Part shown: piece after piece, positions 9,476 through 30,261 of the stretch
How the letters are laid out: every line of letters starts with the position of its first letter
Position numbering within the stretch: the stretch's first letter is position 1
NCBI GenBank assembly: GCA_020632235.1
Contig: JACKFY010000004.1
Coordinates: forward strand, 4,811-68,810
Length of the DNA: 64,000 nucleotides
Source of the DNA: Pseudomonadales bacterium
GTDB lineage: Bacteria > Patescibacteriota > Microgenomatia > UBA1400 > PJMF01
Reading direction: 5' to 3'
Notes under the pieces: generated by a model
The model's input: only the letters and a program-made list of their open reading frames with translations
Told to the model about the DNA's origin: nothing
The model's database searches: none
Translations under genes and position numbers: made by a program

Positions 9476-11425
9476 CTACCCAGCACCCCCTCCACCCCCG
9501 CCCCCACCTCCGCCGCCTCCTCCAGAAGAACCACCAGAACTGCCCGTGCTACTCGCACCATAGCTAGCGGTAGTGGCCGCGCTAATACTACTAATACCAT
9601 CAAGTGCAGCAAGCGAGTGAAACGAGCCACCAGATCCAGAACCCCAGGTAGCTTGTGCACGCTCTGCCTGAGTACTTGAAAACTGGACTGGTAGGTCTTT
9701 GAGCACTTGCTCTGATACACCCAACACTGTGCCGTACACCAGGTAGTTTTCCCACATCACCAGCGAGTCTATCGGTGCATCTGCTGTCACGCGGTATTCC
9801 TCAATGTGTTTTTTGAATGCCAGCCACTCGGCTGCAGTCTCTGCCCCTTTTTTTGTTCTCTTTTCGGCGAACGCAAGCGCCAAAGAGGCAGTAATGATGC
9901 CACACACGGCAAGTCCCACCAGTCCGAACAGAGCAATTACTGACACTTCGAGCGAAAACGGCATAATAGGTAACTCTTGTTCCAGTCTATCGGCAAACAA
10001 CGAGGTAAAGAAAGCAACCGAGAAAATAGAAAAAATAAGAAGCCCAGCATACCACCCATCTTTGAGCGATGATCCAGTGAGAAATCCTTGCGCAACAGCT
10101 TGTCTATGAGAGAGCATGCCAAATCCAGGAAAGAATGCAGAAGCATATTTTGGATCTTTCTTTATATATTTTGGCAACTCTTTGAGAGAAAGAAGAGGGG
10201 CGGTGCTTTCAACATGCGCTGATTTTTTGAGAGGCACTGTGTGTAAAAACGACAAGACTGACTGCTGTAGCTCGGATGGATCATTTTCTCTCGTAACAAA
10301 CTCCAAAAAGTATTCATAGTTTTTAAAGATTGTGCCTGTTTTTTTAGCACTGCGGTGCACACGCACAAAGCCGTCTCTGACCAACGTCAACACAGTAGCA
10401 GTAAAAGCTTTGGGTGTCAGATTCTGGCTAATGCGAATGACTTGCTCAACAATAGCTGGTTCAAGATCACTTGGTGGCTCCCACAGTCGATCTGCTAGGT
10501 TGGCCGCAGGCAGCGGTACCTCTTTGCCTGTCTTCCAAAAATGAGTGATCGTTTTCCAGATCAGCGCCATCTGGATCACCAACGCACCAAAAAATAGCAT
10601 GCTAAAGAAAAGTTGCTGGGTATAGCTTGCTTGTTGTTGGCGCTGTGTTTCGTCTTGGAAACGCTGTTCTTCTGCACGAATTTCAGATTCACTGAGTGTG
10701 CCTGATGCTGTGTTTGTAAACGTCTTTGGGGCAAACAACACTCTACCCTCAACAAACTCGCCGGGAGGAAGAAAGGGGGTAGTAAAGGTAACCAGCTCGT
10801 CTTCTGGACGCGCCACTACTCCATCAAGCGGGCCATGTGACCACGCCTGCATAACGGCAGAGGAAAGCTGTTCTGGCACTCGCAAGCGTACCGAGATGTT
10901 GTTTTGAGGCACCTCCCACCCGCCCCCCACCCACTGCCAGTACAACTCTTGGACATCTTGGTGGGCAGTGACTGCACCTACAACGTCGTACGAGAGAGTA
11001 AAGCGTCGCTCTTCATCCTGGGCGCGGTAAAACCACCGCACGTAGTACTCATCACCTCCATCTATCACATAAAACGTGCCTGGCTCTCGCAGTACATCCA
11101 GCTCGCTAGCGCGTGCACCTGGTAGCTCTTGATAGCATGTTGTTCCCTCACACAGCTGAATGTTCTCAATTTGATAAGTTTTCGATCTACCAGAGTAGTT
11201 TGATTCTTTTGGAATGTACTGATACACAAATGAAAAATTGCCATCAAAATGATATGTGCGCTCTTCGCTCACGCTCATCACGCCCGAGTCATCAAGCTGG
11301 GCTGAAATAGAAACTTCAGAAATATCGTACGACTTGGCAAACAGAGGAGGGGGCAGGGCAAGCAAAGTAAGGCCTGCAACACAGCAAACAAACAGGGTGA
11401 TCAGCCAGCGAGTAACGCGCATCAA
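9476..11425 (-). CDS. DUF2207-like membrane protein with a poly-Gly/Ser C-terminal tail
   Basis: N-terminal signal/TM, a beta-rich ectodomain, central TM helices, and the tail SSGGSSGGGGGGGGGGGGGAG typical of DUF2207 proteins. Confidence 0.65.
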   Translation of the reverse strand: MMRVTRWLITLFVCCVAGLTLLALPPPLFAKSYDISEVSISAQLDDSGVMSVSEERTYHFDGNFSFVYQYIPKESNYSGRSKTYQIENIQLCEGTTCYQELPGARASELDVLREPGTFYVIDGGDEYYVRWFYRAQDEERRFTLSYDVVGAVTAHQDVQELYWQWVGGGWEVPQNNISVRLRVPEQLSSAVMQAWSHGPLDGVVARPEDELVTFTTPFLPPGEFVEGRVLFAPKTFTNTASGTLSESEIRAEEQRFQDETQRQQQASYTQQLFFSMLFFGALVIQMALIWKTITHFWKTGKEVPLPAANLADRLWEPPSDLEPAIVEQVIRISQNLTPKAFTATVLTLVRDGFVRVHRSAKKTGTIFKNYEYFLEFVTRENDPSELQQSVLSFLHTVPLKKSAHVESTAPLLSLKELPKYIKKDPKYASAFFPGFGMLSHRQAVAQGFLTGSSLKDGWYAGLLIFSIFSVAFFTSLFADRLEQELPIMPFSLEVSVIALFGLVGLAVCGIITASLALAFAEKRTKKGAETAAEWLAFKKHIEEYRVTADAPIDSLVMWENYLVYGTVLGVSEQVLKDLPVQFSSTQAERAQATWGSGSGGSFHSLAALDGISSISAATTASYGASSTGSSGGSSGGGGGGGGGGGGGAG

Positions 11426-11573
11426 ACCCTAGTATAGGCTAAGGAAAGTAAAAATGCTGCTACAAGTTTGTTTCACGCGTGAAACAATGTAATGACCTGG
11501 AAGTAGCAGTCGTGAAATGGCGGTGAAACCACCGTAAAACGGTATTGAGTATTTTCTGTGTGCAAAAAAAGTG

Positions 11574-11648
11574 AGGCGCGAGCGGGATTCGAACCCGCGA
11601 ATCGAAGGATTTGCAGTCCTCGCCATTAGACCACTCTGGTATCGCGCC
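11574..11648 (-). tRNA. tRNA-Cys (anticodon GCA)
   Basis: The reverse complement folds as a cloverleaf. Acceptor GGCGCGA/TCGCGCC, anticodon loop CTGCAAA, T-arm GCGGG-TTCGAAT-CCCGC. CCA is not encoded. Confidence 0.85.
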
Positions 11649-11733
11649 CAGACTACTCCTATATCGTACCACGCTTTGTTTGAATTTTAGTCGAAAACTA
11701 CCCTTTCTCGTTATTTTTGATACAATCAAGTGT

Positions 11734-11964
11734 ATGGATGGTACCTTAATCCCCGATGTAACAAAATTATTTTGGGGTGACGACCTGCAAGAACTCAGCT
11801 GGGAAAAACACCAGCGCTACATCACACAAACCATCTTGGAGCAGGGTAACGAAGTAGCTGTTGAGTGGCTACTATCACTCACACCTTCTCACACACTAGG
11901 AGCACACCTGCCCACACTTCGTTTGTCAGAAAAAACCCACCAATTTTGGAGCTCTGTTTTATGA
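11734..11964 (+). CDS. Small protein (76 aa), putative partner or antitoxin-like protein of the downstream nucleotidyltransferase
   Basis: Its stop TGA (11962-11964) overlaps the ATG (11961) of the next gene, giving an ATGA coupling. The motif LFWGDDLQELSWEKHQRYITQTILEQGNEVAVEWL resembles small proteins found upstream of AbiEii-like genes. Confidence 0.4.
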   Translation: MDGTLIPDVTKLFWGDDLQELSWEKHQRYITQTILEQGNEVAVEWLLSLTPSHTLGAHLPTLRLSEKTHQFWSSVL

Positions 11965-12607
11965 TGCACCCTGCCGTTTTACCGAAAAAAACAAGTCAGC
12001 TCGTCAACAACTTTCAACAAGTAGGTGCTGATTTCTTACAACCATTCTACCTATCTGGCGGCACAGCACTTGCATTACAACTGCGTCACCGAGAATCCAT
12101 CCATCTAGATTGTTTTTCACACAATCCGTTTTCCCCCGAAGCAGTACTCGCACAATTACAGTCATTTGGTCGCCCAACTGGCGTTGCAATGAGTCACGGC
12201 ACGCTTAATTGTTTTGTACGTGGGGTGCAGCTACAATTTCTTGAGTATCGCTATCCACTACTTCAACCTACAGTGTCATGGAGTGGACTCAATGTAAGTG
12301 GCGTGCTTGATGTAGCTGCGACCAAACTGCACACCATTAGTGCCAGGGGAAGCAAAAAAGACTTTATTGATCTTTGGCGCGTACTGCAAGAGGGGTACAC
12401 GCTACAAGAACTTTGTAAAGCACTGGAAAAAAATATCAGGATGTTCACTATAACACCGTCCACATTGTAAAATCACTCACCTACTTTGAAGAAGCGGATG
12501 TCCAACCGTCGCCCAAAATGCTCACCGATGTACATTGGCCAGACATCAAAAAAGACATCAAGCAAGCAGTGAAAAAATACGTACAATCTCTAGAGACCAC
12601 TGTTTGA
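11961..12607 (+). pseudogene. Nucleotidyltransferase of the AbiEii/AbiGii (DUF1814-like) toxin family, interrupted by a -1 frameshift in an A7 tract (12427-12433)
   Basis: N-terminal FYLSGGTALALQLRHRESIHLD matches the family. After the A-run the +2 frame reads KYQDVHYNTVHIVKSLTYFEEADVQP...*, the family C-terminus, ending at 12607. The frame as sequenced stops at 12470. Confidence 0.6.
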
Positions 12608-17732: not shown

Positions 17733-19595
17733 ATGAAAACAAAACAACTCTATCTATCTGATTCATATCTTAAGCAGGCTGATGCAAAGGTAGCTGAAAT
17801 AGAGCAGAATGAAAAAATTACTGTTGTGTATCTTGATCAGACTATTTTTTATGCCCAAGGTGGGGGGCAACCGGCTGATATAGGTATTATTGCAGGAAAA
17901 AATGGGACGCTAACCGTTTCTCATGTTTCATACAACAACGGCAAAATACAACATAAAGGTATGCTTTCTGGAACTCTTGAGGAGAATGATGTGGTTACAC
18001 TCACCATCGACTGGAAAAAACGCTATGAAAACATGCAACTCCACACAGCAGGACACGTTTTGGACCAAGCTGTTAAAAATATCATTCCAAATGTGTATGG
18101 GGTAGATGGCACACACGGCATTCAAGGAAAAAACTACATAGAGTTTAACGAAGAAATCAAACCAGATCAACTTCCCCAAATTCAAAAAGAAATAGAGAAC
18201 ATCTGTGCTGCGGGAGAGGACATCACAACACAGATGGTTACCCATGCAGAGATTAAAGCAATGGGCATACACCTGCCATTTGATTTGCCAAAAAATAAAG
18301 ACCTGCGCATCATGAGTATTGGTTCATACCCCGCAATGCCTGACGGAGGCACACAGCTAAAAAATACAGGTGAGTGCTGGCCTATTTCCGTCGATTCTGT
18401 ACAAGAGAAAAAGAATCTTTGGAGAGTACAGTACTCGGTAAAACATCCACAACACAAGAAATCACCAGAAAGTATTAAAAAGAAAAAAGAGGAGCACCTA
18501 CCACTAGTATCTTTAGAAGAGCTTAAAGTTCACGCCACTCGACTTGAACAAGAGGTTAAGGCCGACGTGGATGAAGGATCACCAGACCTCCACACCAAGT
18601 ACCTGGGGAAAAACGGTCTGTTTAACCAGCTAGCAAAAACAATCAAAGATATTGGCCCAGCAGAGCGAAAACAAGCAGGGATGCTGCTCAATCAGGTAAA
18701 AGCAAAGATTACCGCAGCACTAAAACAAACAACAACCAAGCAACAACATAGCGCCATCGACCTGACCATGCCAGGAACAGCCCCACATGTGGGGCATCTG
18801 CACCCCGTGACGCAGGCAATGCGCGAGATCACCGATATTTTTGAGCAAATTGGCTTTACCCGCGTGCGCTACCCAGAGGTAGACTGGGACTGGTACGTCT
18901 TTGAAAGCCTCAACATGCCCCCCCACCATCCCGCCCGAGACGAGTGGGAGACGTTTTTTGTTGACGTGCCAGATACCACCAAAGATGTAGCGTATGACTC
19001 AAACAACCCGCGTAAACGACACCCCAGTTTAGTAGGGGGCAAGGTGGTGCTGACCACGCACACCTCAAACGGCCAAGTACGCGAGATGGAGCGCATGGAC
19101 AGCACCCCACCTATTCGCTTTATCAACATTGCGCGGTGCTACCGCAGACAACAAGACGCCACCCACACGCAAATGTTTCATCAGTTTGAGGGACTGGTGA
19201 TAGACAAACACATCACCATTCAGCACTTAAAGGGCACACTCGACCACTTTGCCCAGCATTTTTACGGACCAACGGTCAAAAGTAGAATTAGACCGTTTCA
19301 CTTTCAGTTTACCGAGCCATCATTTGAGGTTGATTTTTCATGCCATATTTGTGACGGCACAGGGGTAGTAAACGGCGAAAAATGTAAATTTTGCAAATCT
19401 GGCTGGCATGAAGTAGGTGGAGCAGGCATGGTGCACCCCAATGTACTGAAAGCCGGCGGTATCGACCCCGACATATACACCGGCTTTGCCTTTGGCTGGG
19501 GGGTAGAGCGCACCTATACGCTCAAACCAGGGCTCAACATTGATGATATTCGATTGCTATACAGCAGTAACATACAGTTTTTGGAGCAGTTTTAG
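17733..19595 (+). CDS. pheS: Phenylalanyl-tRNA synthetase alpha subunit with an N-terminal AlaX-like (tRNA editing, tRNA_SAD-type) domain fused
   Basis: Residues 1-245 match AlaX (VVYLDQTIFYAQGGGQPADIG, HTAGH zinc motif). Residues 260-620 match PheS (LTTHTSNGQVREM, FQFTEPSFEVD, GWHEVGGAGMVHPNVL, GFAFGWGVER). It is one uninterrupted 620-aa ORF. Confidence 0.8.
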   Translation: MKTKQLYLSDSYLKQADAKVAEIEQNEKITVVYLDQTIFYAQGGGQPADIGIIAGKNGTLTVSHVSYNNGKIQHKGMLSGTLEENDVVTLTIDWKKRYENMQLHTAGHVLDQAVKNIIPNVYGVDGTHGIQGKNYIEFNEEIKPDQLPQIQKEIENICAAGEDITTQMVTHAEIKAMGIHLPFDLPKNKDLRIMSIGSYPAMPDGGTQLKNTGECWPISVDSVQEKKNLWRVQYSVKHPQHKKSPESIKKKKEEHLPLVSLEELKVHATRLEQEVKADVDEGSPDLHTKYLGKNGLFNQLAKTIKDIGPAERKQAGMLLNQVKAKITAALKQTTTKQQHSAIDLTMPGTAPHVGHLHPVTQAMREITDIFEQIGFTRVRYPEVDWDWYVFESLNMPPHHPARDEWETFFVDVPDTTKDVAYDSNNPRKRHPSLVGGKVVLTTHTSNGQVREMERMDSTPPIRFINIARCYRRQQDATHTQMFHQFEGLVIDKHITIQHLKGTLDHFAQHFYGPTVKSRIRPFHFQFTEPSFEVDFSCHICDGTGVVNGEKCKFCKSGWHEVGGAGMVHPNVLKAGGIDPDIYTGFAFGWGVERTYTLKPGLNIDDIRLLYSSNIQFLEQF

Positions 19596-29760: not shown

Positions 29761-29844
29761 CAACACGCCAAGAGCCCTTGACCATTCCTCTTGGGTTAGG
29801 TTACAATCGCCATCGTTTGGAAAACATAACAAAGGAGCATCACC

Positions 29845-30261
29845 ATGGGAGCACTACCAAAAAATAAAATTACCAGAGCCGAGCGAGGCAAACGTCGCAG
29901 TGGCAACACACCCAGTATCACCAAACAAACCGCTCATCACTCCGTACCACGTCACAAGCGAGGATTTGTGGCACAGATACTAGCCAGCATGGGCTTGAAA
30001 AGCACGGATAGCACAAAGCAAGATACTGCGCAACAATCAACACAGGTTACTACTCCCAAGACCACAAAAAAAGTAGAGACAGGGCGCACAAAGAAAGCGG
30101 CCAGCAAAACAACAAAAAAACCAACCACTGCCAAGAAAAAAACCGCTAGCACGGTAAAAAAAACAAACGCTTCCAAGAAAAAAACTACCAAAACTACAAA
30201 GAAACCAGCTAAACCAACAAAAAAACCAACCACTACAGCGAGCGCAAAGACTAGTACGTAA
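29845..30261 (+). CDS. Ribosomal protein bL32-like N-terminus fused to a Lys/Thr-rich histone H1-like tail
   Basis: MGALPKNKITRAERGKRRS fits the bL32 pattern MxxPKxKxxRxxRxKRR. It is followed by an 80-aa KKTxKK repeat tail. Confidence 0.45.
   Translation: MGALPKNKITRAERGKRRSGNTPSITKQTAHHSVPRHKRGFVAQILASMGLKSTDSTKQDTAQQSTQVTTPKTTKKVETGRTKKAASKTTKKPTTAKKKTASTVKKTNASKKKTTKTTKKPAKPTKKPTTTASAKTST

Follow-up and report, generated by a model that had tools for sequence, protein, structure and literature searches.

A decaying DUF6922-AbiEii module in a Patescibacteria-like genome: probable loss of the toxin gene beside an intact partner

Introduction

The closest described relatives of the locus studied here are two-gene systems with a nucleotidyltransferase of the AbiEii/DUF1814 family. 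MenT1, MenT3, and MenT4 are nucleotidyltransferases that extend the 3' ends of tRNAs and block translation (PMC7450476, PMC10435456). The cognate small protein neutralises the toxin by covering the active site and/or inducing auto-phosphorylation of the toxin, at a Ser or Thr two residues before the first Asp of the active site (PMC11375011; bioRxiv 10.64898/2026.01.19.700257). For AbiEii, Dy et al. defined four motifs: I, hG[G/S]; II, R…DhD; III, KLx5R; and IV, +DxxD (PMC3985639). Here we describe a module of this kind at positions 11734 to 12607 of a 64,000-nucleotide stretch of contig JACKFY010000004.1 (assembly GCA_020632235.1), the whole of which we call the window. Its first open reading frame (ORF1) encodes a small DUF6922 protein, and its second (ORF2) is an AbiEii-family toxin gene that breaks in a run of seven adenines (A7).

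We are fairly confident that this is a decaying toxin-antitoxin (TA) type module of DUF6922 and a short AbiEii, in which the toxin gene is a genuine, population-fixed pseudogene and the partner gene is intact. Its gene order, coupling, family, fold, motifs, and two lesions are documented below; it is a degenerate member of a known protein-family pair, not a new system. The features are as follows.

11734..11964, plus strand: ORF1, DUF6922 partner, from ATG 11734 to TGA 11962-11964; 76 amino acids, intact
11961..11964, plus strand: ATGA, in which the ORF2 start codon overlaps the ORF1 stop codon (read from the sequence); translational coupling
11961..12433, plus strand: 5' part of the toxin gene, frame 0, residues 1-157, with motifs I-IV (Pfam AbiEii, family alignment, published motif definitions)
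12102..12104, plus strand: CAT for His48, at the first catalytic Asp position of motif II, where the family has GAT or GAC (homolog alignment)
12348..12350, plus strand: codon 130, which differs among assemblies: Glu (GAA) in two of the five, Gly (GGA) in the window (assembly comparison)
12427..12433, plus strand: A7 run, apparent site of a one-nucleotide deletion; probable ancestral A8, GAA AAA AAA TAT for EKKY (sequence and relatives)
12434..12470, plus strand: out-of-frame tail of the 169-residue product (…NIRMFTITPSTL*; translation)
12434..12607, plus strand: 3' part of the toxin gene, in the -1 frame and still open; residues 158-215 of the repaired protein
11573..11648, minus strand: tRNA-Cys (GCA), a neighbour outside the module with its 5' end facing it (ARAGORN)

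Comparison with described systems

MenAT1 (Rv0078B-Rv0078A) of Mycobacterium tuberculosis shares with this locus a small helical protein encoded upstream of a short DUF1814 nucleotidyltransferase, with MenA1 at 68 amino acids against 76 for ORF1, and PDB chains of MenT1 at 184-195 residues against 215 for the toxin. Among the MenT1 residues T39, D41, K137, and D152 (PMC10435456), the first two belong to the active-site pattern [S/T]-x-D-h-D, to which S46, H48, and D50 correspond here, and the last two have the same K...D spacing as K122 and D137. The partners differ. No similarity between DUF6922 and MenA1 could be detected: a profile search of the PDB, in which the MenAT1 complex is present as 8an5, gave no such match at E values up to 10. 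MenA1 is a V-shaped two-helix protein whereas ORF1 is predicted to be a compact five-helix one. The toxin resembles MenT1 by fold only, at about 14-17% identity. Unlike MenT1, it is frameshifted and has His at the position equivalent to D41.

AbiE of Streptococcus agalactiae and Lactococcus has a toxin of the same family (PF08843), bicistronic overlapping genes, and recognisable motifs I-IV (PMC3985639). Its partner is AbiEi, a COG5340 winged helix-turn-helix protein with a C-terminal domain, whereas no AbiEi match was found for ORF1 in Pfam, NCBIfam, or PADLOC. By its motif positions the window toxin is much shorter than S. agalactiae AbiEii, with a G-to-D spacing of x13 instead of x15. AbiE is an abortive-infection system; for the DUF6922-linked subfamily, a role in phage defence would be putative. 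The best structural match is a third protein, JHP933 of Helicobacter pylori (PDB 4ok0/4o8s; 225-232 amino acids, 16% identity), to which there is no detectable sequence-profile match.

The reading frame of the toxin gene breaks in the A7 run

The initial annotation had described a 76-codon ORF coupled through ATGA to a downstream gene, and sequence and translation agree with its coordinates exactly. From the ATG at 11961, ORF2 runs for 169 codons to a stop at 12468-12470, 12 codons past the A7 run, and its product matches the database entry MCB9802278.1 residue for residue. In the -1 frame (phase +2), no stop follows the tract until a TGA at 12605-12607, and the translation reads KKYQDVHYNTVHIVKSLTYFEEADVQPSPKMLTDVHWPDIKKDIKQAVKKYVQSLETTV, including ...KKYQDVHYNTVHIVKSLTYFEEADVQPSPKM.... 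Inserting one A at the tract gives a translation of 215 amino acids. A tblastn search of the window with this repaired protein returned two abutting high-scoring segment pairs (HSPs), in frames 3 and 2, and no toxin paralog elsewhere in the 64 kb. The break, the C terminus in the +2 frame, and the return of a protein of about 215 residues upon addition of one A had all been proposed from the letters, and all are borne out. In an alignment of homologs, the restored EKKY at the tract is the family consensus, and the reconstructed C terminus agrees with the family at all conserved columns of that region. Separate translation of the C-terminal part is excluded, because the first start codon in the -1 frame after the tract is that of Met187.

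The break is the same in five assemblies

A7 is present in five assemblies, each from a different sample: the window, GCA_020429115.1, Logan SRR28385529, Logan SRR12358676, and ENA ERZ27309125. The pipelines behind them differ (NCBI metagenome-assembled genomes, Logan, and an ENA megahit-style contig). Contigs of the four other samples encode the exact 76- and 169-residue proteins or variants of one to two residues, and they are 99.7-99.96% identical to the window, with 1-8 substitutions and no indel.

Homopolymer indels are a classical error type, and the comparison is one of consensus sequences, so a sequencing or assembly artefact in a gene that is really intact had to be weighed. Such an artefact is effectively excluded, because five independent assemblies agree on A7 yet differ at single-nucleotide polymorphisms (SNPs). 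The window assembly is also not prone to homopolymer errors, since most of its 77 homopolymer runs of 7-9 bases sit inside intact long ORFs, with five in the trigger factor gene. Thus the break is real. Of the two alternatives that the initial annotation had left side by side, a sequencing indel has next to no probability, and genuine inactivation, with A7 fixed in all five assemblies, is the best reading. Searches for further alleles added none: a gapped DNA pattern with 5-11 bases permitted at the tract had no other match in JGI metagenomes, and a protein-guided scan returned distant relatives only, at most 42% identical.

The tract probably lost one A

We compared the tract with 80 related genes from species-representative genomes. 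Each of the 80 gives one HSP with the repaired protein that runs through the site, and none is shifted there. An in-frame A8 lies at the homologous codons in 12 of the 80 (GAAAAAAAATAT or CAAAAAAAATAT, encoding [E/Q]KKY), five more have A7 there, and many have A5-A6; the window tract reads GAAAAAAATAT. Because all relatives are unbroken and 12 carry the in-frame A8, the window appears to have lost one A. The simplest history would be replication slippage that took one A from an ancestral GAA AAA AAA TAT, leaving A7 and cutting the product to 169 amino acids, with a 12-residue nonsense tail and loss of the last ~58 residues.

The locus shares with homopolymer-tract pseudogenes and contingency loci a one-nucleotide loss in an A8 run that breaks the frame, and A8 recurs at this site among relatives. 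Phase variation, in which slipped-strand mispairing would toggle A7 and A8 and so switch the toxin off and on in subpopulations, could also draw on the exact position of the break in a homopolymer, on the fully intact downstream frame, and on the fact that consensus assemblies hide minority alleles. No switching was seen: A7 is present in five of five assemblies and A8 in none, and the JGI pattern scan gave no further copy. With the tract switched "on", the catalytic DhD motif would have His48 all the same, and a second substitution, G130E (see below), is building up in the population. Contingency loci typically have longer tracts, seven or eight adenines being short for an efficient one. We regard phase variation as distinctly unlikely here.

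Under programmed recoding, the full-length protein would instead arise because ribosomes shift by -1 on A_AAA_AAT or because RNA polymerase slips and inserts an extra A. The needed shift is indeed -1, equal to one added A, the heptamer A AAA AAT (12428-12434) has the form X_XXY_YYZ, and the C-terminal frame is open and conserved. Against this, the 101 nucleotides around and downstream of the tract are not predicted to fold more stably than shuffled versions (z = +1.0; 173 of 200 equal or exceed them in stability), which leaves no stable downstream structure, and none of the 80 relatives is shifted at the site. Bacterial ribosomes shift poorly by -1 with an Asn codon in the A site, and efficient transcriptional slippage usually calls for a tract longer than A7. 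Elsewhere in the family, decayed copies break at other positions (locus L118 near residue 105, L123 with 86 amino acids, L114 and L115 with residues 30-144), which argues for decay and not design. Recoding is thus very unlikely, and slippage loss of one A stays our preferred history.

The repaired toxin is an AbiEii/DUF1814 nucleotidyltransferase

The repaired 215-residue protein belongs to AbiEii/DUF1814 (Pfam PF08843; 44.9 bits against a cut-off of 22.5, E 1.7e-11), and the match spans residues 25-206, that is, across the break. This match, together with the fold comparison below, upholds the initial assignment to the AbiEii-like nucleotidyltransferases. The deposited 169-residue fragment has only a "faint" precomputed PF08843 match. 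NCBIfam gave no match for ORF1 or the repaired toxin, and the PADLOC AbiEii models matched the repaired toxin weakly and partially (E 1.7e-4 to 6e-3).

Searching 5.8 billion proteins with the repaired protein returned 999 relatives, which read …[E/K/D]KKY… or …EKY… exactly at the A run of the window. Among the matches listed, the relatives are mostly 203-218 amino acids long, and the closest outside the species itself are 47-54% identical. Full-length matches in the 119 best homologs are all 203-253 amino acids, and none is naturally ~170.

AlphaFold2 modelled the repaired protein with a predicted local distance difference test (pLDDT) score of 96 and a predicted template modelling (TM) score of 0.90. 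The best PDB fold match of the model is JHP933 (E 6e-6, TM 0.56), followed by MenT1 (8an5_B, E 1.4e-4, TM about 0.5; 8an4, E 1.2e-3) and MenT4, and after these DUF1814 enzymes by other pol-beta-type nucleotidyltransferases. The TM-scores against JHP933, MenT1, and MenT4 are only 0.47-0.56. A sequence-profile search of the PDB with the toxin family matched no DUF1814 structure, so the link to DUF1814 structures rests on fold comparison. The sole match of that search was the 92-residue Methanocaldococcus plasmid protein MJECL15 (3h92, E 0.004), covering profile positions 148-202, which correspond to the C-terminal subdomain lost by the frameshift.

Three of the four published motifs are preserved. 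Motif I is present as L31-S32-G33-G34, with G33 and G34 invariant in 119 sequences, motif III as K122-L-H-T-I-S-A-R129, and motif IV as K133-D134-F-I-D137. In the alignment, K122, R129, K133, D134, and D137 are invariant in the family. The lost C-terminal ~58 residues hold eight invariant family columns and confidently modelled helices.

A second lesion lies in the active site

Motif II departs from the published pattern, R-x3-D-h-D. R44 and D50 are present, and His48 stands in place of the first Asp (S46/H48-L-D50), where 115 of 118 homologs have Asp. The initial annotation had called GGTALAL...HR.S.HLD a nucleotidyltransferase core; it is there, as GGTALAL...HRES.HLD, but it is not canonical, since the family reads HRES.DLD. 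His48 is equivalent to D67 of AbiEii and, by motif pattern, to D80 of MenT3. In AbiEii, D67A, D67E, D69A, R63A, K173A, R180A, and D192A all abolish toxicity (PMC3985639), and MenT3 with D80A is neither toxic nor able to transfer nucleotides (PMC7450476). Independently of the frameshift, the window toxin has His where the catalytic DhD motif has its first metal-binding Asp. A product rescued by slippage would probably be inactive as a nucleotidyltransferase, because His48 replaces the catalytic Asp. By analogy with these mutants, the toxin of this locus, truncated and with one catalytic carboxylate gone, would be dead.

The window toxin is off consensus at 8 of the 75 columns conserved at 90% or more (G42R, D48H, F51C, L72P, S114G, I118V, C120A, and F140R), against a mean of 1.7 and a maximum of 8 among homologs. 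No conserved column is hit downstream of the break. A further change is segregating: at 12349 a G/A SNP gives G130E in two of the five assemblies (L001 and L004), within the nearly invariant RGSKKDF, where 90% or more of homologs keep this glycine. Each of the module's three SNPs changes an amino acid (H58Q in ORF1, V15I and G130E in the toxin). The SNP density of the module relative to its flanks was suggestive but is confounded by unequal assembly coverage, and we did not use it as evidence.

The 169-residue protein could itself be functional, neo-functionalised or attenuated, keeping motifs I, III, and IV and still paired with DUF6922. All four motif regions lie upstream of the break, every assembly encodes the same 169-residue product, and the divergence of the toxin does not exceed that of DUF6922 here. 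His48 and the segregating G130E speak against such a function, as do the eight invariant columns and the helices in the lost 58 residues and the lack of any relative of that length among the 119 best homologs. We consider a functional short protein quite unlikely.

The frameshift is probably recent, because the downstream frame is open and family-like, no conserved column is hit there, and the toxin is no more diverged than the partner. D48H may have come first, before the frameshift.

Several points weigh against a fixed, dead toxin gene. The five assemblies are almost clonal, so that the A7 allele is real and fixed in what was sampled but not shown to be old, and a minority A8 subpopulation may be hidden, since A7 was read from consensus sequences. 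Asp48 is also absent from 3 of 118 apparently intact homologs, so the loss of activity from D48H is inferred. In paired toxin and partner identities across 44 modules, both proteins are the third most divergent of 44, with a normal ratio; this comparison gave no sign of toxin-specific accelerated evolution, and since toxin and partner are equally divergent, most of the eight deviations may reflect a divergent lineage instead of decay. Finally, an A7 tract with an A_AAA_AAT heptamer could permit low-level transcriptional or ribosomal slippage.

The DUF6922 partner and its operon are conserved

ORF1 matches DUF6922 (Pfam PF21956) at 35 bits against a cut-off of 27; of the two profiles initially proposed for it, DUF6922 and AbiEi, the first thus stood and the second did not. 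It retains all invariant residues of 42 partners, F13, W14, W45, and W72 (an FW...W...W signature), and its AlphaFold2 model has five helices (pLDDT 90). PADLOC gave no match for ORF1, and a Foldseek search with the model returned nothing at E below 5. A single-sequence homolog search recovered ORF1 alone, so an alignment of partners taken from related loci was needed.

In 43 of the 80 related loci, among them nearly all of the closest ~48, the gene immediately before the toxin gene encodes a partner of 73-78 amino acids. This count comes from a simple ORF picker that failed at more distant loci, and a related partner is also visible in three of those (L055, L066, and L072). The partners share the signature …KYFWGDDL…L.W..H..YI.QTLLEKGD..A..WLF…KS.NFW..YLS and overlap the toxin gene by -4 or -1 nucleotides in most loci. 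In a reciprocal check, the genes of two distant DUF6922 proteins (P0238 and P0215) are each directly followed by an AbiEii gene of 215 codons. With the ATGA overlap, the AbiEii toxin, and this conserved upstream partner, the locus is the two-gene TA-like module that the initial annotation had proposed. The pairing of DUF6922 with a short AbiEii is common in Patescibacteria-like genomes. By analogy with described pairs, ORF1 is the presumed antitoxin or regulator.

The DUF6922 profile found 1,827 cluster representatives at E of 1e-3 or below among 1.84 billion; among the matches listed, they are mostly small stand-alone proteins. All 116 aligned ORF1 relatives match Pfam DUF6922, and no paper in the literature library that was searched mentions the domain. 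Profile positions 19-55 weakly match a single repeat of Pumilio (PUF) proteins (3h3d_X, E 0.0017, and several other PUF proteins), which is probably spurious; we dropped a PUF kinship, as none of the 116 members matches any PUF model in Pfam. A few DUF6922-matching proteins are long (P0314, 450 amino acids; P0275, 214; P0270, 183) and may be fusions or a related repeat family. One long protein has eight stretches that fit profile positions 46-76, suggesting a repeat protein.

Upstream of ORF1 (11719-11736), a TACAAT box lies 8 nucleotides before the ATG, where a consensus promoter scan made no call, and there is no obvious Shine-Dalgarno sequence. The position of the box and the missing Shine-Dalgarno sequence suggest a transcript that is leaderless or has a very short leader.

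Other copies of the pair were seen in varied states. At L123 (3001-3494; ENA ERZ23486233), next to hipBA, the gene for the DUF6922 protein P0238 precedes an AbiEii gene with only 86 codons left. Sister contigs L124-L126 have the same P0238 with a full AbiEii of 215 amino acids, so that L123 is an independent instance in which the toxin decayed and the partner stayed. The family member at L118 (3001-3556) is frameshifted near residue 105-108, a different site from that of the window. L114 and L115 match residues 30-144 only, and several metagenome loci (among L114, L115, L116, L117, L119, L120, and L122) appear to have N- or C-terminal toxin parts only. Broken copies seem common in the AbiEii family linked to DUF6922, as judged from these sequences. 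At L127 (1653-3294; GCA_022866425.1), two AbiEii genes of 215 codons flank one DUF6922 gene; their neighbours are a RelB/YafQ pair and an extracytoplasmic function (ECF) sigma/anti-sigma pair, in a small cluster of TA modules.

Genomic context

The flanking genes encode DUF4153 and DUF2207 membrane proteins, trigger factor, and DUF5660, followed by IF3, L35, L20, and PheRS. A gene weakly resembling SAM-hydroxide-adenosyltransferase ends 7 nucleotides after the toxin stop. The initial annotation had placed the module beside tRNA-Cys, which ARAGORN confirmed, and had pointed to tRNA genes as landing sites of defence islands. That suggestion did not hold: the module sits towards the 5' end of the tRNA gene on the minus strand, whereas integrases use the 3' end, none of the genes next to it was recognised as an integrase, a search around it for att-like repeats of tRNA-Cys gave none, and the module G+C of 0.44-0.47 equals the window mean of 0.466.

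Other observations concern the window at large. At the end of the DUF2207 membrane protein (minus-strand gene 9476-11425) is a long tail of Ser and Gly that includes 13 glycines in a row (9476-9560; local G+C 0.53). Six A7-A8 runs within 160 nucleotides (30066-30225) inside the ORF at 29830-30261 point to a very lysine-rich segment. At 17960-17966 there are three T-to-C differences in 7 nucleotides from GCA_020429115.1, against a background of ~0.6 differences per kb; this patch may be a small recombination or a mismapping. The taxonomic labels conflict: MCB9802278.1 is labelled "Pseudomonadales bacterium" and a 99.9% identical contig "Candidatus Woesebacteria bacterium" (GCA_020429115.1). Many related loci labelled Pseudomonadales or Gammaproteobacteria lie among Patescibacteria-labelled ones, and the Pseudomonadales labels look wrong.

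Discussion

The locus is a bicistronic, translationally coupled TA-type module of a small helical DUF6922 protein and a MenT-like AbiEii/DUF1814 nucleotidyltransferase of ~215 amino acids. By analogy with the MenT enzymes, such a toxin, when intact, would attach nucleotides to the 3' ends of tRNAs and bring translation to a halt, and the upstream small protein would restrain it. The auto-phosphorylated position of the described toxins corresponds to Ser46 of the window toxin, which is invariant. The partner gene has persisted beside the broken toxin gene.

Two bolder views can be put forward. In one, the A7/A8 tract at the conserved EKKY codons switches the gene off and on reversibly, or leaks through slippage, keeping a tRNA-modifying toxin silent but recoverable. 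In the other, which is broader, DUF6922 would be a new and structurally unassigned antitoxin class for minimal MenT/AbiEii nucleotidyltransferases, in a pairing that is widespread in Patescibacteria. We give these views an outside chance. If the switch were true, a reduced-genome bacterium would be keeping a toxin in a silent, recoverable state.

On the preferred reading, a decayed toxin gene with a surviving partner, the deposited 169-residue "AbiEii/AbiGii toxin family protein" (MCB9802278.1, MCA9369716.1) is most likely the product of a frameshifted pseudogene with a mutated catalytic residue, and for that reason is best left out of counts of active toxins and defence genes. The locus would then be a clean example of a toxin that decays, through homopolymer slippage and an active-site substitution, while its partner survives. 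At the level of the family, DUF6922 with a short AbiEii is a large, conserved operon type of MenAT1-like architecture. It is this operon type, and not the broken copy, that is mildly interesting, and it is the only part that might repay experimental study.

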